Positions 33,594 through 48,994 of a stretch of 64,000 nucleotides of DNA are shown one piece after another; the stretch's first letter is position 1; every line of letters begins with the position of its first letter. This DNA is from Callorhinchus milii. Taxonomy: Eukaryota. The notes under the pieces were generated by a model that was not told where the DNA came from, did no database searches, and saw nothing but the letters and a program-made list of their open reading frames with translations. Position numbers and translations under genes: made by a program. The stretch is taken from the NCBI RefSeq assembly GCF_018977255.1, contig NW_024704742.1, forward strand, positions 29,514,001 to 29,578,000. Direction: 5' to 3'.

Positions 33594-35273
33594 ATGGATG
33601 ATCGGGAGCAAAAGGGTATCAATCCCCGCAGTCAAAAAGGTGAGCTCGATGCAATCCAGGAGGCGAGTCCCGACGATGTTGGATTCAGATCTGCAATAAA
33701 TGATGAGTGGGCGATCTACAACGAGGATCCGGATAAATATCAATTCCTTTTTCAATCCCCCTGCTCCACAGCACCTGGTCTGAAGCCAACTTCTCTGCAC
33801 CGAGTGCAGGAAGCTTGGTCTGTAACGAAAGTGAAAGTATCGCGATACGATTCAGGGGCAAAAGGAACTTCATTACATCGATCAAAGTCCGATTTGAATT
33901 TCCTGCAAAGGGAGTTAACCCTCAATCTCTGTTATTTCTCCGGTGACATTGGAAACCTGGTGCAAGAGCTGCAGCCGAGCACAGAACCACTGGCCACGCT
34001 GTGCACTGACAGACAGTGCGGGGACAACGCACAGTGGATCACAGAGCTCGTACGTTACATACAGTCCTTGTCATGGGATCCGGGGAAACAGCACTCAATT
34101 CTGGTTAAAGTAGCAAAGGCTTTTATGCACAACAGTGACCCACATCTGCACTTCCACGAGAAGGTTTTCGTCCCCTCAATTCGTATGTATAAATACTGCA
34201 CTTTGTATAACTGTTTGCTGGAGATGGACAGAGAAGCTTTGGTACAGCTGGAGGCATCGGTGGAAGCAGCTCAAAATCTTGATGTGACTAAAGTGGATTT
34301 GGAGACTCTGGCTGAGCTACTCTGTGCTGATCTTTCCTGGAAACCTCTTGGTTACAGGCTCTTAGAACAACCGTCAACCTCCTCCTACATCGCCCTTTTC
34401 GACCATATCAAATGGCAAGAAAATTGGTGCAAAAGAGAATTTCTCCACGCTCTTCTCTTGTCAATCAAAACAAAACCAGATCAGGTGGAAACTTTCCACA
34501 ACTTGAGAGGAGACAAGATTTTCCTGCCCGCAGTCATCAACTCCAAGTGGGTAAAGAAACTAAAATGCCTGAAGTTACTGCTACACAAACATGTATTTAA
34601 AGAGGAAATCTCATTGAACAGAGTGATGTGGTGCAGTCCCACTGAGGCAGAGGTGTTTTTAGAGACACTGTCAGTCTTCGGATATCCACATATTGCCCAA
34701 GAGTTGGGTAAGTGCATGGGCAGCAGCAATGTTATCAGGTTCAGGGACGAGAAACCACCGAAACAGAAGACAAATACGAAAACATTCAGCAGCGCATATG
34801 TCACTGTCTTACCTGCAAATATCTCCTCTGAGAGTCGTCCACCCAAACTGCACTTACACACCAAACACTGGACACCCAACACTGCACGTGTAACTACAGC
34901 AACACGTTACTGTCATAGATATTGTAGGAAGCCCTCACTGCCTGACCCGTGGCTGTACCGAATGGCAGGAGCTCTGGCCTCTGAATGGACGGCAGTAGCC
35001 AGAGATTTTGGTTTCAGTGAGAGCGACATAGAGAAAACGGCAACTGATCCTTGGTACAACCACCAGCAGCGAATGTTCCACCTCCTGTACAGACTGTCAC
35101 ACGAGCAGCAGATGAGCTTCACAGAGCTGTGCTTCCTGCTGCTTTGTAAAGTCAGTGATTATAAATGTCACCGGCAAATACAGTGTATCATAGGAGCAGC
35201 ACTCAGTGCTGTTGAGCTGCAGGAAGACGTGGACTTATCTAGAAATGAGGGAGAGAACCTGTTCCAGAGGTAA
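33594..35273 (+). CDS. Copy A, 5' ORF (559 aa): variable N-terminus + death-fold region + death domain; stops just before the FIIND
   Basis: Kozak GCCATGG at 33594; uninterrupted ORF; DD-like LPDPWLYRMAGALASEWTAVARDFGFSESDIEK...QQRMFHLLYRL. TAA at 35271 where copy B has CAA. Could be a pseudogene. Confidence 0.6.
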   Translation: MDDREQKGINPRSQKGELDAIQEASPDDVGFRSAINDEWAIYNEDPDKYQFLFQSPCSTAPGLKPTSLHRVQEAWSVTKVKVSRYDSGAKGTSLHRSKSDLNFLQRELTLNLCYFSGDIGNLVQELQPSTEPLATLCTDRQCGDNAQWITELVRYIQSLSWDPGKQHSILVKVAKAFMHNSDPHLHFHEKVFVPSIRMYKYCTLYNCLLEMDREALVQLEASVEAAQNLDVTKVDLETLAELLCADLSWKPLGYRLLEQPSTSSYIALFDHIKWQENWCKREFLHALLLSIKTKPDQVETFHNLRGDKIFLPAVINSKWVKKLKCLKLLLHKHVFKEEISLNRVMWCSPTEAEVFLETLSVFGYPHIAQELGKCMGSSNVIRFRDEKPPKQKTNTKTFSSAYVTVLPANISSESRPPKLHLHTKHWTPNTARVTTATRYCHRYCRKPSLPDPWLYRMAGALASEWTAVARDFGFSESDIEKTATDPWYNHQQRMFHLLYRLSHEQQMSFTELCFLLLCKVSDYKCHRQIQCIIGAALSAVELQEDVDLSRNEGENLFQR

Positions 35274-37040
35274 CACATAAAGGTGCTGGAACATAAGACG
35301 CTTCGAGTGGTTTGTGGCCAGTGGAGTGAAGCCCCTGAGATGAGAGAGATCAGCCCGAAGGTGTTTGAAAGCTTCGTGGATCAGGTGTCCCTGGTTGGTC
35401 CTGTGTTTGATGTGCACACACAAACCAAAGGGACAAAGGTGATGGTGTTTCTTCCCACGTACACTCCGTGTGAAACTGAGCTGAGCCCCTCAGTTCTTGC
35501 AGAGAGTCTATTGACTCTTCTGACCATGAAATACCAAGATGTGGGGAATTGCTTGTGTAAGAAGTTAGAAGCAGTGCTAAGTGCAGAAGAGAAATCAAGA
35601 CTGTTTAAAGTCCTCCTACAGGAGGATTGTGAAGCTGCTGTGAAGCTGATCTTGTCAAAAGGGCAGAGAGCTCTTCAGCTGCTTTGTGAATACCTCAGGG
35701 CATCAGGCAGTGAGATGAGGTTGTGGCCGGCAAAGCTTCGCTCTCTGCTGGAAACATCACCCACCCAGGTCGGACACATCCAAGATGGAAACCTGGAGCT
35801 TGTGGTTCCACTCGCTGTGCTGGAAAGACACCTGTTGCTGTTCACAGAGTCCCTCTCTCCGCTAGCGGTCATAGAAAAGCTGCGAAGATTATTTACTCAG
35901 ACACGTGCTTACTGTTTGTTATACAAACCAGTGGGACGTCAGTACATTGACTGCAGAGTAACACTGAGGGTGTTTTTGATACCCAGGAGTGGCTCACTGG
36001 TGCAGGGACTGGATACAAAGCTGAAAGGTTATAAACGAGTGTTTATTTCAAATATCAGTATTAAAGGGAATGTTTGTTATAGACTACTCTTTAAGGACGT
36101 TACTTCTGACAATTCACTCCTTAGGGTCACTCCAAGAGATGGCAGTGAGTACAAGGAAGCACTGAGCCTTATGGATCCCATGACTAAGTATCTGATTGCT
36201 CTTAATATAAAGGACTGGGTCCAATGGCCTCTGGTGCTGCAGATTACACGAGACAAAAACTCTGTGATATTTGAGGAAACCATTGATGATGAAATGTTGC
36301 AGTTTGAAAATGGGGAATATTTCATTCTCAACCTCGATGGTAAGAAGCATTGTATCATGAGGATTCACCAAGAAATTAGTTACAAAGAATTCAGCCACAA
36401 ATTAAACACTGTGCTGCCGGAGAGAAAACTCTCTGTCTATTACAAACAAGATGGGATCCCTCTGCTGGTTAATAATGGACGTCCAAACGCTTCACAGAAT
36501 ATACTGTAAAGTGAATTGACTGTATATTTGTGGGCCAACGCGGCAGCCAATTGCGCGCAGCAACAAAGCGAGTGCTCTAACCACTGAGCTACAGGACTCC
36601 ACGATGATGAAAGCATCAAAATGATTCTGAGGGACCAATGCGGGAAAGATATTGTTCTGGAAGCTGAAGACATCATTGATGAGGTGATTACAGCAGGAAT
36701 GCAAGTGATGCCATTGGCCAGGTTACCTTCTCCAAATGAACCACTCAGCCGCCGGAGGCCATCTCCCACTGAACAGCATTTTGTGGTTCGACACAGGACA
36801 GCTTTAATTAAGAGGATCTCAGACATCAAAAGTCTTCTGGATGATCTGAGACATGAAAGTGTTATTAACGATAATGAATACCAGAGAATCAGAGGAGAAA
36901 ATATACGCAATGAACAAATCACACACACTGTAGATTACACTATTAACAAAGGGAAAAATGCAATGGATATATTTTATGAGAGTCTTTCCAAAAATGACCC
37001 GCACCTTGTTGAGGACTTGCAACTTAGGGAGATATCTTAA
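35274..37040 (+). pseudogene. Copy A, 3' part: FIIND - PB1-like - CARD, disconnected by an upstream stop and a SINE remnant
   Basis: Same frame as the 5' ORF and near-identical to copy B. SINE remnant at ~36477-36602 adds a TAA at 36507; CARD (QHFVVRHRTALIKRI...DPHLVEDL) ends at 37040. Confidence 0.75.
36477..36602 (-). mobile_element. Internally deleted SINE remnant inside the copy A PB1-like domain
   Basis: Antisense SINE core fused directly to SINE head; absent from copy B at LVNN|DES. Confidence 0.85.
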
Positions 37041-37099
37041 AAATATATTGCAGCCATTTACACCTCCTTCTGTTTTGCAAACCGTTAGTAATAATAATA

Positions 37100-39100: not shown

Positions 39101-41278
39101 ATCTGTCTCCTACCCCCGCTCCTCCCCCTGGTACACCACCCACCTCCGCTCACTGAAAAGCCAGGTGCGGGCCGCTGAACGCACCTGTGTCAAATCTGGC
39201 CTAACGGTCCACCGACAAATCTGGCTGGACCTCCTCAAAATTTACCGCTCCACTCTAGCCTCGGCCAAGTCGTCCTTCTACTCCAGGATAATCCTGGAGG
39301 CGAAGAACAACCCCAGGCTACTGTTTTCCACCACAACCCGACTCCTCCGTCCCCCCCGCCACCCCGCGCAGGTCATCTCCTCCAACCTTCACTGCGAGGA
39401 GATGCTGGATTTCCTTGAATCCAAGATCAAGGGAATTCGCTCCGCGGTCACTTCCCCTCCAACATCCACCAACCCCCCACCCCCTCCTCCCACACTCCGA
39501 CTGCTACCCATCCTCCCCGACTCGTACCCGTTTCCCCACCCTCTGTCACCAAACTCATCCTATCCCTAAAACCAACCACCTGCTCCCTTGACCCCATCCC
39601 CACTCCACTCCTTATCTCCCAGCTCCACTTTCTTGCCCCACATATCACCGTCAACCTGTCCCTCTCCTCTGGCTCTGTCCCCATTCCCTTAAAAACTGCC
39701 ACCATCACGCCCACCCTGAAAAAACCCTCCCTTGATGCGTCGCAGCTATCAAGCTACCGGCCCATCTCCAACCTCCCCTTTCTCTCCAAGGTCCTGGAAA
39801 GAGTTGTCGCCTCCCAACTGCGCTCTTTCCTTTCCACCCATTCATTTTTCGAACCCCTTCAGTCAGGTTTCCGTGCTGCCCATAGCACAGAAACTGCCCT
39901 GGTCAAGGTCACCAATGATATCCTGACCATCTGTGACCAGGGCTCCCTCTGCCTCCTCGTCCTCCTCGACCTATCGGCAGCATTCGATACGGTCGACCAC
40001 GCTATCCTACTCCACCGCTTGTCCTCCCACCTCAACCTTCAAGGCACTGTCCTTGAGTGGTTTAGGTCGTACCTTTCTCACCGTCTTCACTTTGTCTCCA
40101 CGAATGGCTTCTCCTCCACCCCCCGCACTGTCTCATGTGGTGTCCCTCAGGGCTCTGTCCTCGGTCCCCTCCTCTTCACCCTCTATATGCTCCCCCTTGG
40201 TGACATCATCCGCAGACATGGGTTAACTTCCACATGTATGCGGATGACACCCAACTCTACCTTTCCTCCTCTACTCTCAACTCCACGACCACCGATGTCC
40301 TGACAGCCTGCCTGTCCGACATCGAGTCCTGGACGAGAGACAACTTTCTTCAGCTCAACGTGCGAAAAACCGAGGCCCTCCTGATTGGCTCACGTCAGCG
40401 CCTCCGCACCTCAGGCGCTGACACCATCAGCATCCAAGGCTGCACTCTCCACCTCTCAAAGCCAGTCAGGAACCTCGGCGTTTTGTTCGACCCTGAGCTG
40501 TCCTTTCTCCCTCACATCCGCACCACAACTGGCACCGCCTTCCATCACCTCCGGAACATCGCCAGACTACGGCACTACCTCACCCCTCACGCTGCTGAAA
40601 CCCTGGTCCACGCCTTTGTCACCTCAAGGCTGGACTATGGGAACTCTCTCCTCGCCGGCCTTCCCGCCACCTCCCTCCACAAGCTGCAGGTCATTCAGAA
40701 CTCTGCAGCTCGTGTACTGTCCCGCACCAGGCTTCGGGACCACATCACTCCCACCCTCGCTCGCCTCCACTGGCTCCCCATCCCCCAGAGGATTGATTTC
40801 AAGATCCTCATCCTCACCTACAAGGCCATTCACGGCCTTGCTCCCTCCTACCTCTCTGACCTACTATCCCCCTACCTACCTGCCCGTACCCTCCGTTCCT
40901 CCGGCTCCGGTCTGCTCCACGTCCCCCGCCCCAACCGCCCTACCATCGGTGGTCGGGCCTTCAGCCTCTCAGCCCCGAGGCTCTGGAACTCCATCCCCCA
41001 GTGCCTTCGCCGCCTCCTCCCTCTCCTCCTTCAAGGCCGGTCTCAAAACCTTTCTCTTTGACCGTGCCTTCAGCTCCCCTCTCGACTCTCTTCCCCCTCC
41101 TCGCTCCCTCCCTTCCCTCCCTCACCCTGACCATTTCCCCCTCCTCGCTCCCTCCCTTCCCTCCCCTCACCCTGACCATTTNCCCCCCTGCTCGGGTCCT
41201 GACCCAACTGTGCAGCGCCTTGGGACGTCCTCCTGACGTGAAAGGCGCTTTATAAATGGAATCTTGTTGTTGTTGTTG
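39101..41278 (+). mobile_element. L2 LINE, 5'-truncated young copy with RT domain
   Basis: [64 protein letters not shown]; few frameshifts; (TTG)n tail. Confidence 0.95.
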
Positions 41279-42196: not shown

Positions 42197-42601
42197 AAAC
42201 GTTGAGACATTCATTCATTTCAACTATTGCTACTTTCATACACACATATCTATCTCTTGGAGTGTCTGTGTATCGAGCAGCAGCTTTGTCTTACCAGAAA
42301 TTTCTCCCAACTAAGCACACACGGGACTCTTTACCCCAAACTCTTTGGACACAATGCAAATGTTCAAAATAGTTGAATCACAAAGCAATGAAATCCTATT
42401 TACAGATGGGATGATCTCTCTGTTGGAGGAAATGGAATGGCAGCTTGGAATCTCCCTCGGCAACTCTTCACGGACAAAGTGTTGATCATACACGTGTGTT
42501 GTTTTTTGTACCATCGAATTCCTGGCACACCAGGTCCCAGGCTTCCTGTTTCTCTAAAGTTCTGCCAAACGCGGAAGCCAAGTTACAGTCCAAGTCCAGC
42601 A

Positions 42602-43530
42602 ATGTTTGACGTGGAGAGGGATCAGGATGAAGAGTAGGAGACACCCGATTCCCAAATGAAGAGGAAGCGGGTCCACAAATCGTCCCGCGGCCGAGCGCTG
42701 CCTTTTCGGGAGCGGAGAGAAGTGGCAGATGCAGAAGCCGCTCAGGCCGGTGCCTCACACACTCTCAGACGGTTTGCTTCGCGACTGAGAAAGTGGATTC
42801 GGCGGCGACTGAACCTCAACAGCCCCGAAACACCAGTGGCCACGATCAGTGAGGGCCCCCCCGGCACAATAACAAATCTGTACCGTTTGCAACTTGAAGC
42901 TTCAGCTTCTATATCTGGATCTGAGTATAACATTGACAACACATCAGCTTCTGCATCTGCACCGGAGATCAGCAATGACTGAACAACAAAGATTGAGGAA
43001 GACTGTTACGAGCCAATATTAAGAGACTTCCTATTGGTCTCGGATTAGGAAACGCGCTGTGGTATCAGGACATTTAGCAGAAAAAAGTTCTTGCCAAAAG
43101 CCTTTATTGCCCACAGACAGTGTATGAGCCTCTCAACCTATTCGGGTGCTGACAGACAGCTGCTAATCTGCGTGAGGGACTGTCTCCGTGATCTGAAGGG
43201 TGACATGACTTTTCTTGTGCAACAGCTGGTGGGCGACCCAGAGCCGCCTCCCACTCTGTGCACTGACAGCCTGTGTGAACACAACACACAACTCATCAGT
43301 ACATTACAGACCTGCTGCGGTGAACAGGACTCACAGGGAAACCTGCTCCAACTGGCAAAACCTCCACTGTTACTGTTACTGTTGGGTAATAGAGGGCAAT
43401 TGCATGTTTTACGGAAGTGATTTGGCTGCGTTCAAGGACGTGTATAACTGTTTGCTGGAGATGGACACAGAGAAGCTCTGGTACAGCTGGAGGCATCGGT
43501 GGAAAGCAGCTGAAAATCTCGATGTGGCTT
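42602..43530 (+). pseudogene. Copy C: 5' fragment of the copy B-type gene
   Basis: Colinear with rc 48326-47400. Stops at 42635, 42980 and ~43046, indels near 43360-43420, homology ends after AAENLDV. Confidence 0.85.
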
Positions 43531-43721
43531 TTCCAGGCAGGGACTCAATGGGTGTAAAGAGTGTAGACACATTTACTTGACACCATGTTACTTTCAAATA
43601 TAGGTTTTATTAAAGTTTGAACAGACAAATCAGCTATACTGTATCCCTTATACAGCTTCACTAAGCAACGGACAGAATTAAAATCATATTACCCACTACT
43701 CCTCCTCTTTCACCTTTAATC

Positions 43722-44240
43722 GAATTCAAGATCCTCATCCTCACCTACAAGGCCATACACGGCCTTGCTCCCTCCTACCTCTCCGACCTACTATCCCCCG
43801 ACTTACCTGCCCGTACCCTCCGTTCCTCTGGCTCCGGTCTGCTGCACATCCCCCGCCCTAACCGCCCTACCATCCGTGGCCGGGCTTTCAGCCTCTCAGC
43901 CCCTGGGCTCTGGAACTCCATCCCCCAGTGCCTTCTCCCTTTCCTCCTTCAAGGCCGGTCTCACGACCTTTCTCTTTGACCGTGCCTTCAGCTCCCCTCT
44001 CGACTCTCTACCCCCTCCTCGCTCCCTCCCTTCCTTCCCCTCACCCTGACCATTTCCCCCTCCTCGCTCCCTCCCTTCCCTCCCCTCACCCTGACCATTT
44101 CCCCCCTGCTCGGGTCCTGACCCAACTGTCCAGCGCCTTGGGATGTCCTCCCAACGTGAAAGGCGCTCTATAAATGGAATCTTGTTGTTGTTGTCCTCCC
44201 GACGTGAAAGGCGCTCCATAAATGAAATGCTGTTGTTGTA
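43722..44240 (+). mobile_element. L2 LINE 3' end with duplicated tail
   Basis: Matches 40795-41278; terminal ~45 bp repeated at 44194-44238. Confidence 0.85.
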
Positions 44241-44290: not shown

Positions 44291-44766
44291 GTACATATAC
44301 ACAGATGCAGTAGAATCGATAGGGATTCCACTGGGAAGTGGGCTGACCCTCTATACAACTCCAACTATTTCAGTGTTACATCTTTCTTTTATGTATTTCT
44401 AACTCCACCTCCCTTGTCACAGAGATAGCCCCCACCTTTCGCAGGCTGCTTTGTACAGAGAGAGATATGGACAACTTCTGGGCAGCTTTCCACAGCCTGC
44501 TTTGTTTCTCAGCCTTGAGATACGCAGGTGTCTGAGGCTGTAGCCTTTTCTTTCTGTGGTCCATTCTTCTTGCATCTATCCTGAAGGTCCCGATTGCTCA
44601 TTATCTCATAGGAGTGAACATCTTCCCAGGAAAATATGAAATGTAATCAGAAGCTAACCTCAACCTGTCCAGCAAAGCTACTTTTAACCTCCACTTCTTC
44701 TGGAACATTCGGTTGCTGCTATCAATACACTAATGTATCGTGAAGTGATAGTCAGTATATTTCAAC
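44291..44766 (+). repeat. Direct repeat, copy 1 (copy B stop codon + 3' flank)
   Basis: Highly similar to 48995-49468; weaker similarity also between ~43660-43720 and ~48790-48850. Confidence 0.85.
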
Positions 44767-47727
44767 AAGAGTCCCCTGAGACATCTCCCTACATTTCAAG
44801 TCATCAACAAGGTATGGGTCATTGTTGCAAAGACTTTTAAAAAACAAATCCATTGCATTTTCCCCTTTCTTAATCGTGTAATCTAACATGCAGGTGATTT
44901 GTTCATTGCGAATATTTTCTCCTCTGATTCTCTGGTATTCATTATCGTTAATAATACTTTCATGTCTCAGATCATCCAGAAGACTTTTGATGTCTGAGAT
45001 CCTCTTAATTAAAGCTGTCCTGTGTCGAACCACAAAATGCTGTTCAGTGGGAGATGGCCTCCGGCAGCTGAGTGGTTCATTTAAAGAAGGTAAACTGGCC
45101 GATTGCACTACTTGGGATTCTGCTTTAATTATCTCATCAATGATGTCTTCACCTTCCAGCATAATGTTTCCCTTCTCTTGTTGCTGCACAATTAGGCTGA
45201 TACTTTCGTCATTATTAACCAGCAGAGGGATCCCATCTTGTTTGTAATAGACAGAGAGTTTTCTCTCCGGCAGCACAGTGTTTAATTTGTGGCTGAATTC
45301 TCTGTAACTAATTTCTTGGTGAATCCTCATGATACAATGATTCTTACCATCAAGGTTGAGAATGAAATATTCCGCATTTTCAAACTGCAATATTTCATCA
45401 TCAATGGTTTCCTCAAATATCACAGAGTTTTTGTCTCGTGTAATCTGCAGCACCAGAGGCCATTGGACCCAGTCCTTTATATTAAGAGCAATCAGATACT
45501 TAGTCATGGGATCCATAAGGCTCAGTGCTTCCTTGTACTCACTGCCATCTCTTGGAGTGACCCTAAGGAGTGAATTGTCAGAAGTAACGTCCTTAAAGAG
45601 TAGTCTATAACAAACATTCCCTTTAATACTGATATTTGAAATAAACACTCGTTTATAACCTTTCAGCTTTGTATCCAGTCCCTGCACCAGTGAGCCACTC
45701 CTGGGTATCAAAAACACCCTCAGTGTTACTCTGCAGTCAATGTACTGACGTCCCACTGGTTTGTATAACAAACAGTAAGCACGTGTCTGAGTAAATAATC
45801 TTCGCAGCTTTTCTATGACCGCTAGCGGAGAGAGGGACTCTGTGAACAGCAACAGGTGTCTTTCCAGCACAGCGAGTGGAACCACAAGCTCCAGGTTTCC
45901 ATCTTGGATGTGTCCGACCTGGGTGGGTGATGTTTCCAGCAGAGAGCGAAGCTTTGCCGGCCACGACCTCATCTCACTGCCTGATGCCCTGAGGTATTCA
46001 CAAAGCAGCTGAAGAGCTCTCTGCCCTTTTGACAAGATCAGCTTCACAGCAGCTTCACAATCCTCCTGTAGGAGGACTTTAAACAGTCTTGATTTCTCTT
46101 CTGCACTTAGCACTGCTTCTAACTTCTTACACAAGCAATTCCCCACATCTTGGTATTTCATGGTCAGAAGAGTCAATAGACTCTCTGCAAGAACTGAGGG
46201 GCTCAGCTCAGTTTCACACGGAGTGTACGTGGGAAGAAACACCATCACCTTTGTCCCTTTGGTTTGTGTGTGCACATCAAACACAGGACCAACCAGGGAC
46301 ACCTGATCCACGAAGCTTTCAAACACCTTCGGGCTGATCTCTCTCATCTCAGGGGCTTCACTCCACTGGCCACAAACCACTCGAAGCGTCTTATGTTCCA
46401 GCACCTTTATGTGTTGCCTCTGGAACAGGTTCTCTCCCTCATTTCTAGATAAGTCCACGTCTTCCTGCAGCTCAACAGCACTGAGTGCTGCTCCTATGAT
46501 ACACTGTATTTGCCGGTGACATTTATAATCACTGACTTTACAAAGCAGCAGGAAGCACAGCTCTGTGAAGCTCATCTGCTGCTCGTGTGTCAGTCTGTAC
46601 AGGAGGTGGAACATTCGCTGCTGGTGGTTGTACCAAGGATCAGTTGCCGTTTTCTCTATGTCGCTCTCACTGAAACCAAAATCTCTGGCTACTGCCGTCC
46701 ATTCAGAGGCCAGAGCTCCTGCCATTCGGTACAGCCACGGGTCAGGCAGTGAGGGCTTCCTACAATATCTATGACAGTAACGTGTTGCTGTAGTTACACG
46801 TGCAGTGTTGGGTGTCCAGTGTTTGGTGTGTAAGTGCAGTTTGGGTGGACGACTCTCAGAGGAGATATTTGCAGGTAAGACAGTGACATATGAGCTGTTG
46901 TCTGTTTTCGTACTTGTCTTCTGTTTCAGTGGTTTCTCGTCCCTGAACCTGATAACATTGCTGCTGCCCATGCACTTACCCAACTCTTGGGCAATATGTG
47001 GATATCCGAAGACTGACAGTGTCTCTAAAAACACCTCTGCCTCAGTGGGACTGCACCACATCACTCTGTTCAATGAGATTTCCTCTTTAAATACATGTTT
47101 GTGTAGCAGTAACTTCAGGCATTTTAGTTTCTTTGCCCACTTGGAGTTGATGACTGCGGGCAGGAAAATCTTGTCTCCTCTCAAGTTGTGGAAAGTTTCC
47201 ACCTGATCTGGTTTTGTTTTGATTGACAAGAGAAGAGCGTGGAGAAATTCTCTTTTGCACCAATTTTCTTGCCGTTTGATATGGTCGAAAAGGGCGATGT
47301 AGGAGGAGATTGACGGTTGTTCTAAGAGCCTGTAACCAAGAGGTTTCCAGGAAAGATCAGCACAGAGTAGCTCAGCCAGAGTCTCCAAATCCACTTTAGT
47401 CACATCAAGATTTTCAGCCGCTTCCACCGAAGTCTCCAGCTGTACCAAAGCTTCTCTGTCCATCTCCAGCAAACAGTTATACACATCCTTGAACGCAGCC
47501 ATATCACTTCCGTAAAACAAGTAATTGAACTCTGTTGGGTCCAAGTGGTTGTTGCTGCTTTGTACGAGAGCTTTTGCCAGTTGGAGCAGGTTTCCCTGTG
47601 AGTCCTGTTCACCGCAGCAGGTCTGTAATGTACTGATGAGTTGTGTGTTGTGTTCACACAGGCTGTCAGTGCACAGAGTGGGAGGCGGCTCTGGGTCGCC
47701 CACCAGTTGTTGCACAAGAAAAGTCAT
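44752..47727 (-). CDS. Copy B: intronless NLRP1/CARD8-like protein, death-fold/DD - FIIND - PB1-like - CARD (991 aa from first in-frame ATG)
   Basis: Open for about 1000 codons. DD ~46750-46485. FIIND ~46400-45400 (VGPVFDV, VFLP, QVGH at 45912, ESL|SPLAV with Ser at 45831, CLLYK, VTLRVFLIP). PB1-like ~45370-45145. CARD ~45045-44795. The ancestral start is probably the Kozak ATG at 48326, now cut off by a frameshift and a TAG. Confidence 0.8.
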   Translation of the reverse strand: MTFLVQQLVGDPEPPPTLCTDSLCEHNTQLISTLQTCCGEQDSQGNLLQLAKALVQSSNNHLDPTEFNYLFYGSDMAAFKDVYNCLLEMDREALVQLETSVEAAENLDVTKVDLETLAELLCADLSWKPLGYRLLEQPSISSYIALFDHIKRQENWCKREFLHALLLSIKTKPDQVETFHNLRGDKIFLPAVINSKWAKKLKCLKLLLHKHVFKEEISLNRVMWCSPTEAEVFLETLSVFGYPHIAQELGKCMGSSNVIRFRDEKPLKQKTSTKTDNSSYVTVLPANISSESRPPKLHLHTKHWTPNTARVTTATRYCHRYCRKPSLPDPWLYRMAGALASEWTAVARDFGFSESDIEKTATDPWYNHQQRMFHLLYRLTHEQQMSFTELCFLLLCKVSDYKCHRQIQCIIGAALSAVELQEDVDLSRNEGENLFQRQHIKVLEHKTLRVVCGQWSEAPEMREISPKVFESFVDQVSLVGPVFDVHTQTKGTKVMVFLPTYTPCETELSPSVLAESLLTLLTMKYQDVGNCLCKKLEAVLSAEEKSRLFKVLLQEDCEAAVKLILSKGQRALQLLCEYLRASGSEMRSWPAKLRSLLETSPTQVGHIQDGNLELVVPLAVLERHLLLFTESLSPLAVIEKLRRLFTQTRAYCLLYKPVGRQYIDCRVTLRVFLIPRSGSLVQGLDTKLKGYKRVFISNISIKGNVCYRLLFKDVTSDNSLLRVTPRDGSEYKEALSLMDPMTKYLIALNIKDWVQWPLVLQITRDKNSVIFEETIDDEILQFENAEYFILNLDGKNHCIMRIHQEISYREFSHKLNTVLPERKLSVYYKQDGIPLLVNNDESISLIVQQQEKGNIMLEGEDIIDEIIKAESQVVQSASLPSLNEPLSCRRPSPTEQHFVVRHRTALIKRISDIKSLLDDLRHESIINDNEYQRIRGENIRNEQITCMLDYTIKKGENAMDLFFKSLCNNDPYLVDDLKCREMSQGTLVEIY

Positions 47728-48326
47728 GTCACCCTTCAGATCACGGAGACAGTCCCTCACGCAGATTAGCAGCTATCTGTCTGCACCCGAATAGGTTGAG
47801 AGGCTCCTACACTGTCTGTGGGCAATAAAGGCTTTTGGCAAGAACTTTTTTCTGCTAAATGTCCTGATACCACAGCGCGTTTCCTGATCCGAGACCAATA
47901 GGAAGTCTCTTAATATTGGCTCGTAACAGTCTTCCCCACTCTCCATTATACAGTCATTGCTGATCTCCAGTGCAGATGCAGAAGCTGATGTGTTATCAAT
48001 GTTATACCCAGATTCAAATACAGAAGCTGATTCTTCAGGTTGCAAACAGCAATTTGTTATTGTGCCGGGGGGCCCTTACTGATCGTGGCCGCTGGTGTCT
48101 CGGGGCTGTTGAGGTTCAGTCGCCGCCGAATCCACTTTCTCAGTCGCAGAAAAGCCCGTCTGAGAGTGTGTGAGGCACCGGCCTGAGCGGCTTCTGCATC
48201 TGCCACTTCTCTCCGCTCCCGAAAAGGCAGGGCTCGGCCGCGGGATGATTTGTGGCCCCGTTTCCTCTTCACTTGGGAATCGGTTGTCTCTTGCTCTTTA
48301 TCACGATCCCTCTCCACGTCAGCCAT
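47728..48326 (-). pseudogene. Disrupted ancestral N-terminal extension of copy B
   Basis: GCCATGG at 48326 (MADVERDRDKEQ...). C6 run at 48067-48072 where copy C has C7; in-frame TAG at 47773-47775 where copy C has CAG. Repairing both gives one 1191-aa ORF. Confidence 0.7.
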
Positions 48327-48994
48327 GGCAGGACTTGGACTGTAACTTGGCTTCCGCGATTGCCAGAACTTTACAGAAACAGGAAGGGCTGGAACCTGGT
48401 GGGGAAGATCTCGTTGCTGATGTAACGATGAGGTAAAATGTCAGCAGTAATAAAACTTTGGGGAAAGCCTTGAATTGACAAAACAATAAGCCAGGGAATG
48501 GACCTCAACATACAGGGCAGAGATCAGCTCCTGGAAATCCTCAGGGACAATTGATTCTGTAACACAAAACATAATAGGGACTGGTGCCCGGTAACCCTCG
48601 GACACAACCAATCCTATATAAAACATACACAGCAGAGATCACAGAACTATCACACAGAATCACAGAGAGTGGCTCCTGTAAACTCAACAGAAAGAATCGG
48701 CTCTTAGCCCAGCATTTCACTCGTGCTTGCATAACCTGACTTCCGCATTTCAAATGGACCAACCACTACAACTGTTATTTCCTCTCTGCCTAATAAACAG
48801 AACCAAAAACATATTAACCACTCCTCCTCCACTTTCACTTTTAATTTTGAACTCATTTTAATTTTTTTACCTCACCCCTCAGGCCGCTGAACCTCTTGTT
48901 CATGCCTTCAGCACCAAACTCTGTGAACCCATCTCCCCTATTCTTGCCCAACTCCATTGACTCCCTATCCTTCAGAGGATCCAGTTCAAGATCC

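Follow-up and report, generated by a model that had tools for sequence, protein, structure and literature searches.

A predicted PB1-like domain between UPA and CARD in a FIIND-related protein family of cartilaginous fishes

The FIIND-CARD proteins NLRP1 and CARD8 serve as the model of how autocleavage and then "functional degradation" bring about activation, and in both the UPA subdomain is joined to the CARD by a short flexible linker. An excerpt of PMC7794386 gives these linkers as predicted unstructured stretches of 25 residues in NLRP1 and 17 in CARD8, which bears out an earlier note on the DNA studied here that had credited both proteins with nothing but a linker at this place. What, then, separates UPA from CARD in P0001, an open frame of the chimaera Callorhinchus milii in which a domain of ~75 residues and a linker of 35 replace the 17-25 residues of NLRP1 and CARD8? 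The frame (1006 codons plus a stop, no internal stop; 44752-47772, minus strand) lies in a stretch of 64,000 nucleotides (hereafter the window; NCBI RefSeq assembly GCF_018977255.1, contig NW_024704742.1, positions 29,514,001 to 29,578,000), to which all coordinates refer. It encodes a Death-like region, a ZU5-like domain with a helical insert, a UPA-like region, the segment in question, the linker and the CARD, in that order. The segment comprises residues 801-876 (45145-45372, minus strand) and its translation is EYFILNLDGKNHCIMRIHQEISYREFSHKLNTVLPERKLSVYYKQDGIPLLVNNDESISLIVQQQEKGNIMLEGED, the peptide quoted in the earlier note plus 14 more residues; the end coordinate given there, 45370, falls 2 nucleotides short of the first codon. 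Its position between UPA and CARD was confirmed by the Pfam match of the CARD at residues 912-992 and by alignment of the upstream region to a bona fide FIIND protein. We judge it probable that this segment is an autonomous PB1-type beta-grasp domain of ~75 residues that acts as a non-canonical interaction module before the CARD, in a FIIND-related family that was found only in cartilaginous fishes.

Structure prediction was performed with AlphaFold2 on residues 790-885 (96 residues), using an alignment of eight sequences (the query and seven relatives). The model reached a mean predicted local distance difference test score (pLDDT) of 81.6 and a predicted template modelling score (pTM) of 0.72, with four of the five models at 80 or above. 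Its topology is strand-strand-helix-strand-strand-helix-strand, with strands at query positions 13-18, 21-27 and 50-54, a two-residue bridge at 61-62, a last strand at 81-87, and helices at 34-44 and 66-75. In P0001 numbering these elements are β1 802-807, β2 810-816, α1 823-833, β3 839-843, β4 850-851, α2 855-864 and β5 870-876. The earlier note had read a beta-beta-alpha-beta-beta-alpha pattern from the letters, which the prediction reproduces and extends by the fifth strand; it had also named a failure to predict a beta-grasp as the outcome that would overturn its proposal, and since a beta-grasp is what was predicted, that test failed to refute it. Identical segment elements were obtained, at a pLDDT of ~70-83, in a 567-residue model covering residues 440-1006, where the CARD was also confident. 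This larger model is poor overall (mean pLDDT 45.6, ZU5 and UPA not modelled), and it is uninformative on how the PB1-like domain packs against UPA or CARD.

The segment is also set off from its neighbours by its conservation and its exon structure. Its identity to orthologs (30-41%) compares with 37-41% for UPA and 29-34% for the CARD, and conservation falls sharply just past β5, where the 35-residue linker (residues 877-911; 45040-45144, minus strand) is 4-25% identical to orthologs, carries many gaps and is modelled at a pLDDT of ~30. Thirteen columns of the 96-residue query (numbered 789+1 to 789+96) are invariant in all eight sequences: ten inside the domain (C813, R816, I817, H818, Y823, P835, K844, L850, S857 and L872) and three just N-terminal of it (L795, E798 and N799). 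In a multi-exon paralog elsewhere in the same genome (C10:16531731-16540714, minus strand) the segment corresponds to precisely two exons, and each of the three junctions around and within it is in phase 1 (...ENQ/DHILVK...KEE/GDLPLRIS...LEAE/VTGD...CARD, slashes marking junctions); such same-phase intron boundaries are the pattern expected of a shuffled, self-contained domain. Weak Pfam UPA-FIIND matches in relatives stop before the segment, as in P0005, where the match spans 796-883 and the domain starts at ~925. By these data the segment is shown to be a discrete module, conserved and placed directly before the CARD. Alternatively, it could belong to the UPA sandwich as a C-terminal extension, or be a structured piece of the linker, in which case too shallow an alignment would have produced the predicted fold as an artefact. 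The small number of aligned sequences, a score of 61.7 for one of the five segment models and the poor quality of the 567-residue model would fit that explanation, but one fold is predicted both alone and in context, the phase-1 boundaries coincide with the domain ends, the UPA-FIIND matches of relatives end upstream and conservation drops right after β5. We therefore regard a dependent segment as very improbable.

To which known kind does this autonomous segment belong? Every structural comparison placed PB1 domains first. Searched against the PDB with Foldseek, all 17 rows listed before rank 21 were PB1 domains (MEKK3, AtNBR1, MAP2K5, PKC-iota/Par6, p40/p67phox, NBR1 and MEKK2), the best being MEKK3 (2pph; E 7.3e-5, TM 0.64). 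With VIA-align, PB1 entries took ranks 1-14, and in a second look at 998 chains ranks 1-25, with the best PB1 rows up to 3 Z units above the top ubiquitin-like row. On the predicted model, the segment is a beta-grasp of ~80 residues closest to solved PB1 domains, those of MEKK2 and MEKK3 above all. Sequence comparison pointed the same way. PB1 was the sole Pfam family matched by the segment at E ≤ 10 (E 0.03, 14.7 bits), and it was matched at identical profile positions in four of the seven domain-bearing relatives (E 0.0067-0.11). A phmmer search against all PDB sequences at E ≤ 10 returned three matches, all to the MEKK3 PB1 domain (E 0.46-0.75). For CIDE-N, which the earlier note had suggested searching alongside PB1, there was no Pfam match at E ≤ 10 and no entry among the Foldseek and VIA-align rows shown. 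PB1 clusters made up 22 of 30 neighbours by ESM Atlas features (top score 0.92, 173 shared features), an outcome that, by the tool's own note, also arises for shuffled sequences about one third of the time.

That last caveat is one of several points that weigh against a PB1 assignment. Every Pfam PB1 score lies below the gathering threshold of 23.6 bits (PF00564), the best being 16.8 bits (E 0.0067), so that the Pfam search proposed in the earlier note singled out PB1 as the only candidate family while leaving it below threshold. PB1 was not listed by Pfam at E ≤ 1 for the whole of P0001, nor for three of the seven relatives. A profile of UPA plus domain (A2), run against PDB sequences at E ≤ 10, gave 10 matches with neither PB1 nor FIIND among them. 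We also built a makeshift PB1 alignment (A6) from six PB1 exon matches in the C. milii genome, three of them Par6-like. When the full-length family alignment (A3) was compared with it by hhalign, the domain was left unmatched and the top match fell elsewhere (probability 0.3%). The domain columns alone aligned to A6 in the expected register but weakly (P 0.017, probability 2.6%), and to the three Par6-like exons alone with a P of 0.18. No sequence score is significant by itself. Among the matches of the A2 profile were SETD3 and ribosomal protein L21 (E 0.07-0.6), which were taken as chance.

Because all of the PB1 sequence evidence is sub-threshold, the segment might be a generic ubiquitin-like domain without specific kinship to PB1, that is, a beta-grasp of independent origin or one diverged past recognition, serving as a ubiquitin-like contact for the proteasome or a ubiquitin-binding domain, or as a rigid spacer. 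Against this stand the runs of PB1 entries at the head of both VIA-align rankings, the restriction of sequence matches to PB1 in one register across several relatives, and the lack of any ubiquitin-family Pfam model at E ≤ 10. A generic ubiquitin-like domain is therefore unlikely, although we would still give it some weight. With Pfam, phmmer, Foldseek, VIA-align and ESM Atlas each supporting PB1 as the nearest known kind, homology of the segment to PB1 is likely, though not proven.

If the fold is that of a PB1 domain, does the segment interact as one? PB1 domains of type A carry a conserved acidic OPCA motif on β3-β4-α2, and those of type B an invariant lysine on β1. The earlier note had pointed to a Y.x.DG...I.NDE.I signature resembling the OPCA motif. 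This signature is present in P0001 but specific to the chimaera copies; it is not kept across the family and cannot count as a functional acidic motif. Scored in ungapped register against the OPCA consensus quoted in that note, acidic residues occupy 3, 3, 0, 0, 1, 1, 1 and 2 of the seven OPCA positions in the eight sequences, the two chimaera copies being those with three. On β1, positions 1, 3 and 5 are exposed as judged by hydrophobic periodicity; at the fifth the eight sequences have N, N, T, T, R, G, R and K, and no conserved lysine is seen in this approximate register. Judged from the aligned sequences, the domain lacks a conserved acidic cluster and appears to lack a conserved β1 lysine. 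Of the PB1/ubiquitin-like proposal, the beta-grasp and the nearness to PB1 were upheld, and a functional OPCA-like motif was not.

These observations bear directly on the possibility that the segment is a canonical PB1 domain, which would pair front to back through acidic and basic faces and either self-polymerise or dock to the PB1 domains of p62, NBR1, aPKC or the MEKKs. Such a domain would supply the UPA-CARD fragment with one more oligomerising module, its third, or would connect it to autophagy and kinase scaffolds. PB1 is indeed the nearest fold and the sole sequence family matched, the chimaera copies are acidic at three of seven OPCA positions, and lysine or arginine stands at the exposed fifth β1 position in three of eight sequences. 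However, the six other relatives are acidic at only 0-2 of the seven positions, the fifth β1 position is variable, the closest matches are MEKK2 and MEKK3, whose PB1 domains are not known to polymerise, and release of a UPA-X-CARD fragment is doubtful with the P1 Phe lost, as described below. A canonical PB1 domain is accordingly a distinctly unlikely description.

Comparison with solved PB1 domains illustrates how far the likeness extends. The PB1 domains of MEKK2 and MEKK3 (4y5o_B, 2o2v_B, 2pph, 2c60 and 2cu1) resemble the segment in size and topology, that of MEKK3 supplied the only PDB sequences matched by phmmer, and the aligned stretch of MEKK3, like the segment, lacks a full acidic cluster from β3 to α2. 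Identity is nevertheless 13%, with the Pfam score below threshold, and the segment sits between UPA and CARD whereas the MEKK2/3 domains lie at the N-terminus of a kinase. The MEKK3 PB1 domain uses its β1 lysine to bind MEK5; unlike MEKK3, the segment appears to have no conserved lysine on β1. As for the PB1 domains that polymerise or heterodimerise (p62/SQSTM1, NBR1, aPKC, Par6 and p40/p67phox), their OPCA positions are not conserved in the segment's family. Surface residues that are conserved in the family are R816-x-H818 on β2 and K844 at the end of β3, and from this conservation we infer that a family-specific patch is the working surface.

The idea of a released fragment depends on the state of the FIIND region. 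By hhalign, the family profile aligned to P0038, a bona fide FIIND protein (Pfam FIIND E 4.4e-47), over 126 columns with a probability of 81% and an E of 1.2e-5, and through this alignment the ZU5-UPA region is homologous to FIIND (PF13553 / PF23679). Direct Pfam matches were weaker: FIIND scored above threshold in one of nine members (eight relatives and P0001), namely P0155 with 28.3 bits, while P0001 reached 17.6 bits, and three relatives had weak UPA-FIIND matches. The stretch from His621 to Ser648 (45829-45936, minus strand) aligned on 'HFVDGG...SF/SP' of P0038, the slash marking cleavage. Ser648, the equivalent of the FIIND nucleophile, opens the UPA-like region, and its spacing from His621 (27 residues) equals that between His270 and Ser297 of CARD8, both of which are required for autocleavage according to PMC3210808. 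The nucleophilic Ser is kept in all sequences seen and the upstream His in all but the shark protein P0003 (Gln). In contrast, the buried P1 Phe of the SF/S motif was not found. It is replaced by Leu647 in P0001, by His in P0002 and P0003 (two sharks), and by Cys in P0005, P0154, P0155, P0006 and the C10 gene.

The mutation F296H leaves CARD8 severely defective in autocleavage, and the equivalent change has a like effect in PIDD and Nup98 (PMC3210808). With P1 Phe replaced, constitutive autocleavage and a free UPA-X-CARD fragment appear doubtful, at least in the His-bearing sharks, and the premise of a released fragment in the earlier note is correspondingly weakened. Since the Phe is missing from the FIIND cleavage motif, signalling probably comes from a chain that is cleaved poorly or not at all. 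In that case the place of action of the segment would be the full-length protein and not a UPA-CARD fragment set free.

How might a PB1-type module act there? We propose that it would mediate protein-protein contacts and in this way govern the presentation of the adjacent CARD, either by holding the CARD in check intramolecularly or by adding a contact for clustering or for recruiting a partner. The contact surface would be specific to the family and centred on the invariant Arg816 and His818 of β2 and on Lys844, and the canonical acidic/basic front-to-back pairing would not be used. Which surface binds and how the CARD would be regulated are both inferences, and this counts among the points against our preferred explanation. 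A stronger version would make the module a working third interaction surface added by cartilaginous fishes, either a plug-in to PB1 scaffolds or a self-association that nucleates the CARD; we consider this an outside prospect. If true, UPA-CARD would be plugged into the network of p62, MEKK2/3 and aPKC, and hence into NF-kB or autophagy, and signalling would have a route that needs neither FIIND autocleavage nor an ASC-like adaptor.

Whichever way the module acts, this ancient vertebrate family has kept ZU5-UPA-CARD while losing the cleavage Phe and carrying an insert in ZU5 and a PB1-like domain before the CARD, three differences that point to another way of controlling CARD assembly. The family can also be seen as a natural construct for asking how UPA-CARD spacing and extra contacts set the threshold for filament formation. 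P0001 shares the order ZU5(-like), UPA(-like), CARD with NLRP1 and CARD8 but differs from them by having, across its family, Leu, His or Cys where SF/S has its Phe, by the helical insert of ~90 residues in ZU5 and by a Death-like domain upstream. PIDD1, UNC5 and ankyrins, compared by description, likewise combine a ZU5-UPA pair with death-fold domains; they end in a Death domain and P0001 in a CARD. To our knowledge, none of these three has a PB1-like module. PMC3210808 describes HF/S as the autocleavage motif used by PIDD1.

How widely is this architecture distributed? A word-based search found one full-length relative, LOC125464833 of Stegostoma tigrinum (P0002), which is 35% identical to P0001 end to end. 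A profile of the two proteins, searched against 1.84 billion representative proteins, gave 540 matches at E ≤ 0.001; among the 150 of these that were listed, matches outside the CARD were confined to P0003-P0007 and to P0038, the last at the ZU5/UPA border, and copies of the PB1-like domain in other protein contexts are possible among the 390 further matches. A second word-based search added members from C. milii, Carcharodon carcharias, Cetorhinus maximus, Scyliorhinus torazame and Mustelus asterias. Every named family member is a cartilaginous fish. In the databases the shark members are called 'uncharacterized protein', and two chimaera models 'CARD domain-containing protein' or 'ASC-like'. 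The C10 paralog is the third family gene of the chimaera genome. It comprises at least 12 tblastn segments, each 38-58% identical to the zebra-shark protein, and the 192-residue public model P0007 derives from it. Both copies in the window are intronless across the whole frame, which, set against this multi-exon gene, suggests retrocopies or wholesale intron loss.

PB1, FIIND and CARD are each known. None of the papers found describes their combination, the lost cleavage Phe or the helical ZU5 insert. In the library searched there was no report combining a PB1 domain with FIIND or ZU5 and none pairing FIIND with Callorhinchus, and the terms PB1, CARD, death fold and shark together gave only influenza and PANoptosis reviews, judged by their titles.

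The remaining regions of P0001 vary in the firmness of their assignment. The CARD (residues 912-992; 44797-45039, minus strand) is matched by Pfam PF00619 above threshold (E 5e-19, 68.5 bits), and its best PDB sequence matches are the CARDs of CARD8, ASC and NLRP1. Across the whole protein, Pfam reported four families: CARD, weak FIIND (615-656), weak Death and Phe_hydrox_dim. The Phe_hydrox_dim match (E 0.26) was weak and taken as chance. The Death-domain-like region (residues 347-422; 46507-46734, minus strand) shows higher conservation than any other block of the family, with dense invariant columns in the alignment, but its Pfam Death match is sub-threshold (E 0.017), as it is every time in the relatives (E 0.00082-0.1). 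The N-terminal part of the ZU5-like domain (residues 455-520; 46213-46410, minus strand) was placed by eye on P0038 only ('SLVGPVFDVHT..VMVFLP' against 'VSGPLFNIRVEP..AVHLPHF'), in a region with no confident model. An insert of ~90 residues follows (residues 521-612; 45937-46212, minus strand), for which six helices are predicted at positions 86-175 of the 567-residue AlphaFold2 model, with a pLDDT of 50-70; P0038 has only a few residues at this site. Pfam found a weak CARD match within it (residues 576-596, E 0.038), and the insert may represent a death-fold module, now degenerate, lying within ZU5. The last strands of the ZU5-like domain (residues 613-647; 45832-45936, minus strand) carry the Pfam FIIND match (E 0.0031, profile positions 86-127 of 131). 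The UPA-like region (residues 648 to ~790; 45403-45831, minus strand) is defined by the hhalign alignment of the family profile with P0038.

A further set of objections to our explanation concerns whether P0001 belongs to an intact gene. An in-frame TAG (47773-47775) lies directly upstream of the frame, and at this place a duplicate at 43049-43420 reads Gln. This duplicate falls within an inverted repeat (42542-43471 against 47453-48386, 90-95% complementary), by which the 5' part of the minus-strand gene is present a second time, downstream of the gene. The arms of the repeat differ in their frame breaks: in the minus arm these are the TAG and a frame shift at ~48057-48075, in the plus arm a stop after '...EISND'.

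Contigs from four public runs of two studies, whose library kind is not on record and could only be guessed, span 44698-47483 with no joint across the PB1-like domain. Those of two runs, X1 and X3, depart from the reference at 47483 and run on like the 5' region of the plus-strand copy, 30 letters of the continuation matching 34174-34203 with 3 mismatches. An X3 contig also has an extra C after 48072, where the reference frame shifts. The 5' end of the minus-strand copy in the reference may be rearranged, polymorphic or misassembled. Given the upstream TAG and this difference from the sequenced contigs, the minus-strand copy may not be a working gene. One contig has a depth of 9.5 in a run of 217 million letters, for a genome of 991 million bases; this exceeds what random genomic reads would give and is no more than a hint of expression.

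The plus-strand paralogous copy (33936-37061) is 84% identical to P0001, with an in-frame stop at 35271-35273. A repeat-derived insert of ~129 nucleotides (~36475-36603) breaks up its PB1-like domain. The 35-nucleotide head of this insert occurs six times in the window against an expectation of 0, and ARAGORN found no transfer RNA in the insert; it therefore looks like a fragment of an interspersed repeat. In the public C. milii models P0153 and P0004 it is treated like an intron and spliced out. The identity of P0004 to the plus-strand paralog is 99.7-100%, and P0153 matches that paralog apart from the spliced-out insert. In the gene flanks at 39419-41236 and 43665-44049 (plus strand), the list of open reading frames shows reverse-transcriptase-like frames and repeated proline- and serine-rich frames, which look like the remains of retroelements of the LINE (long interspersed nuclear element) type.

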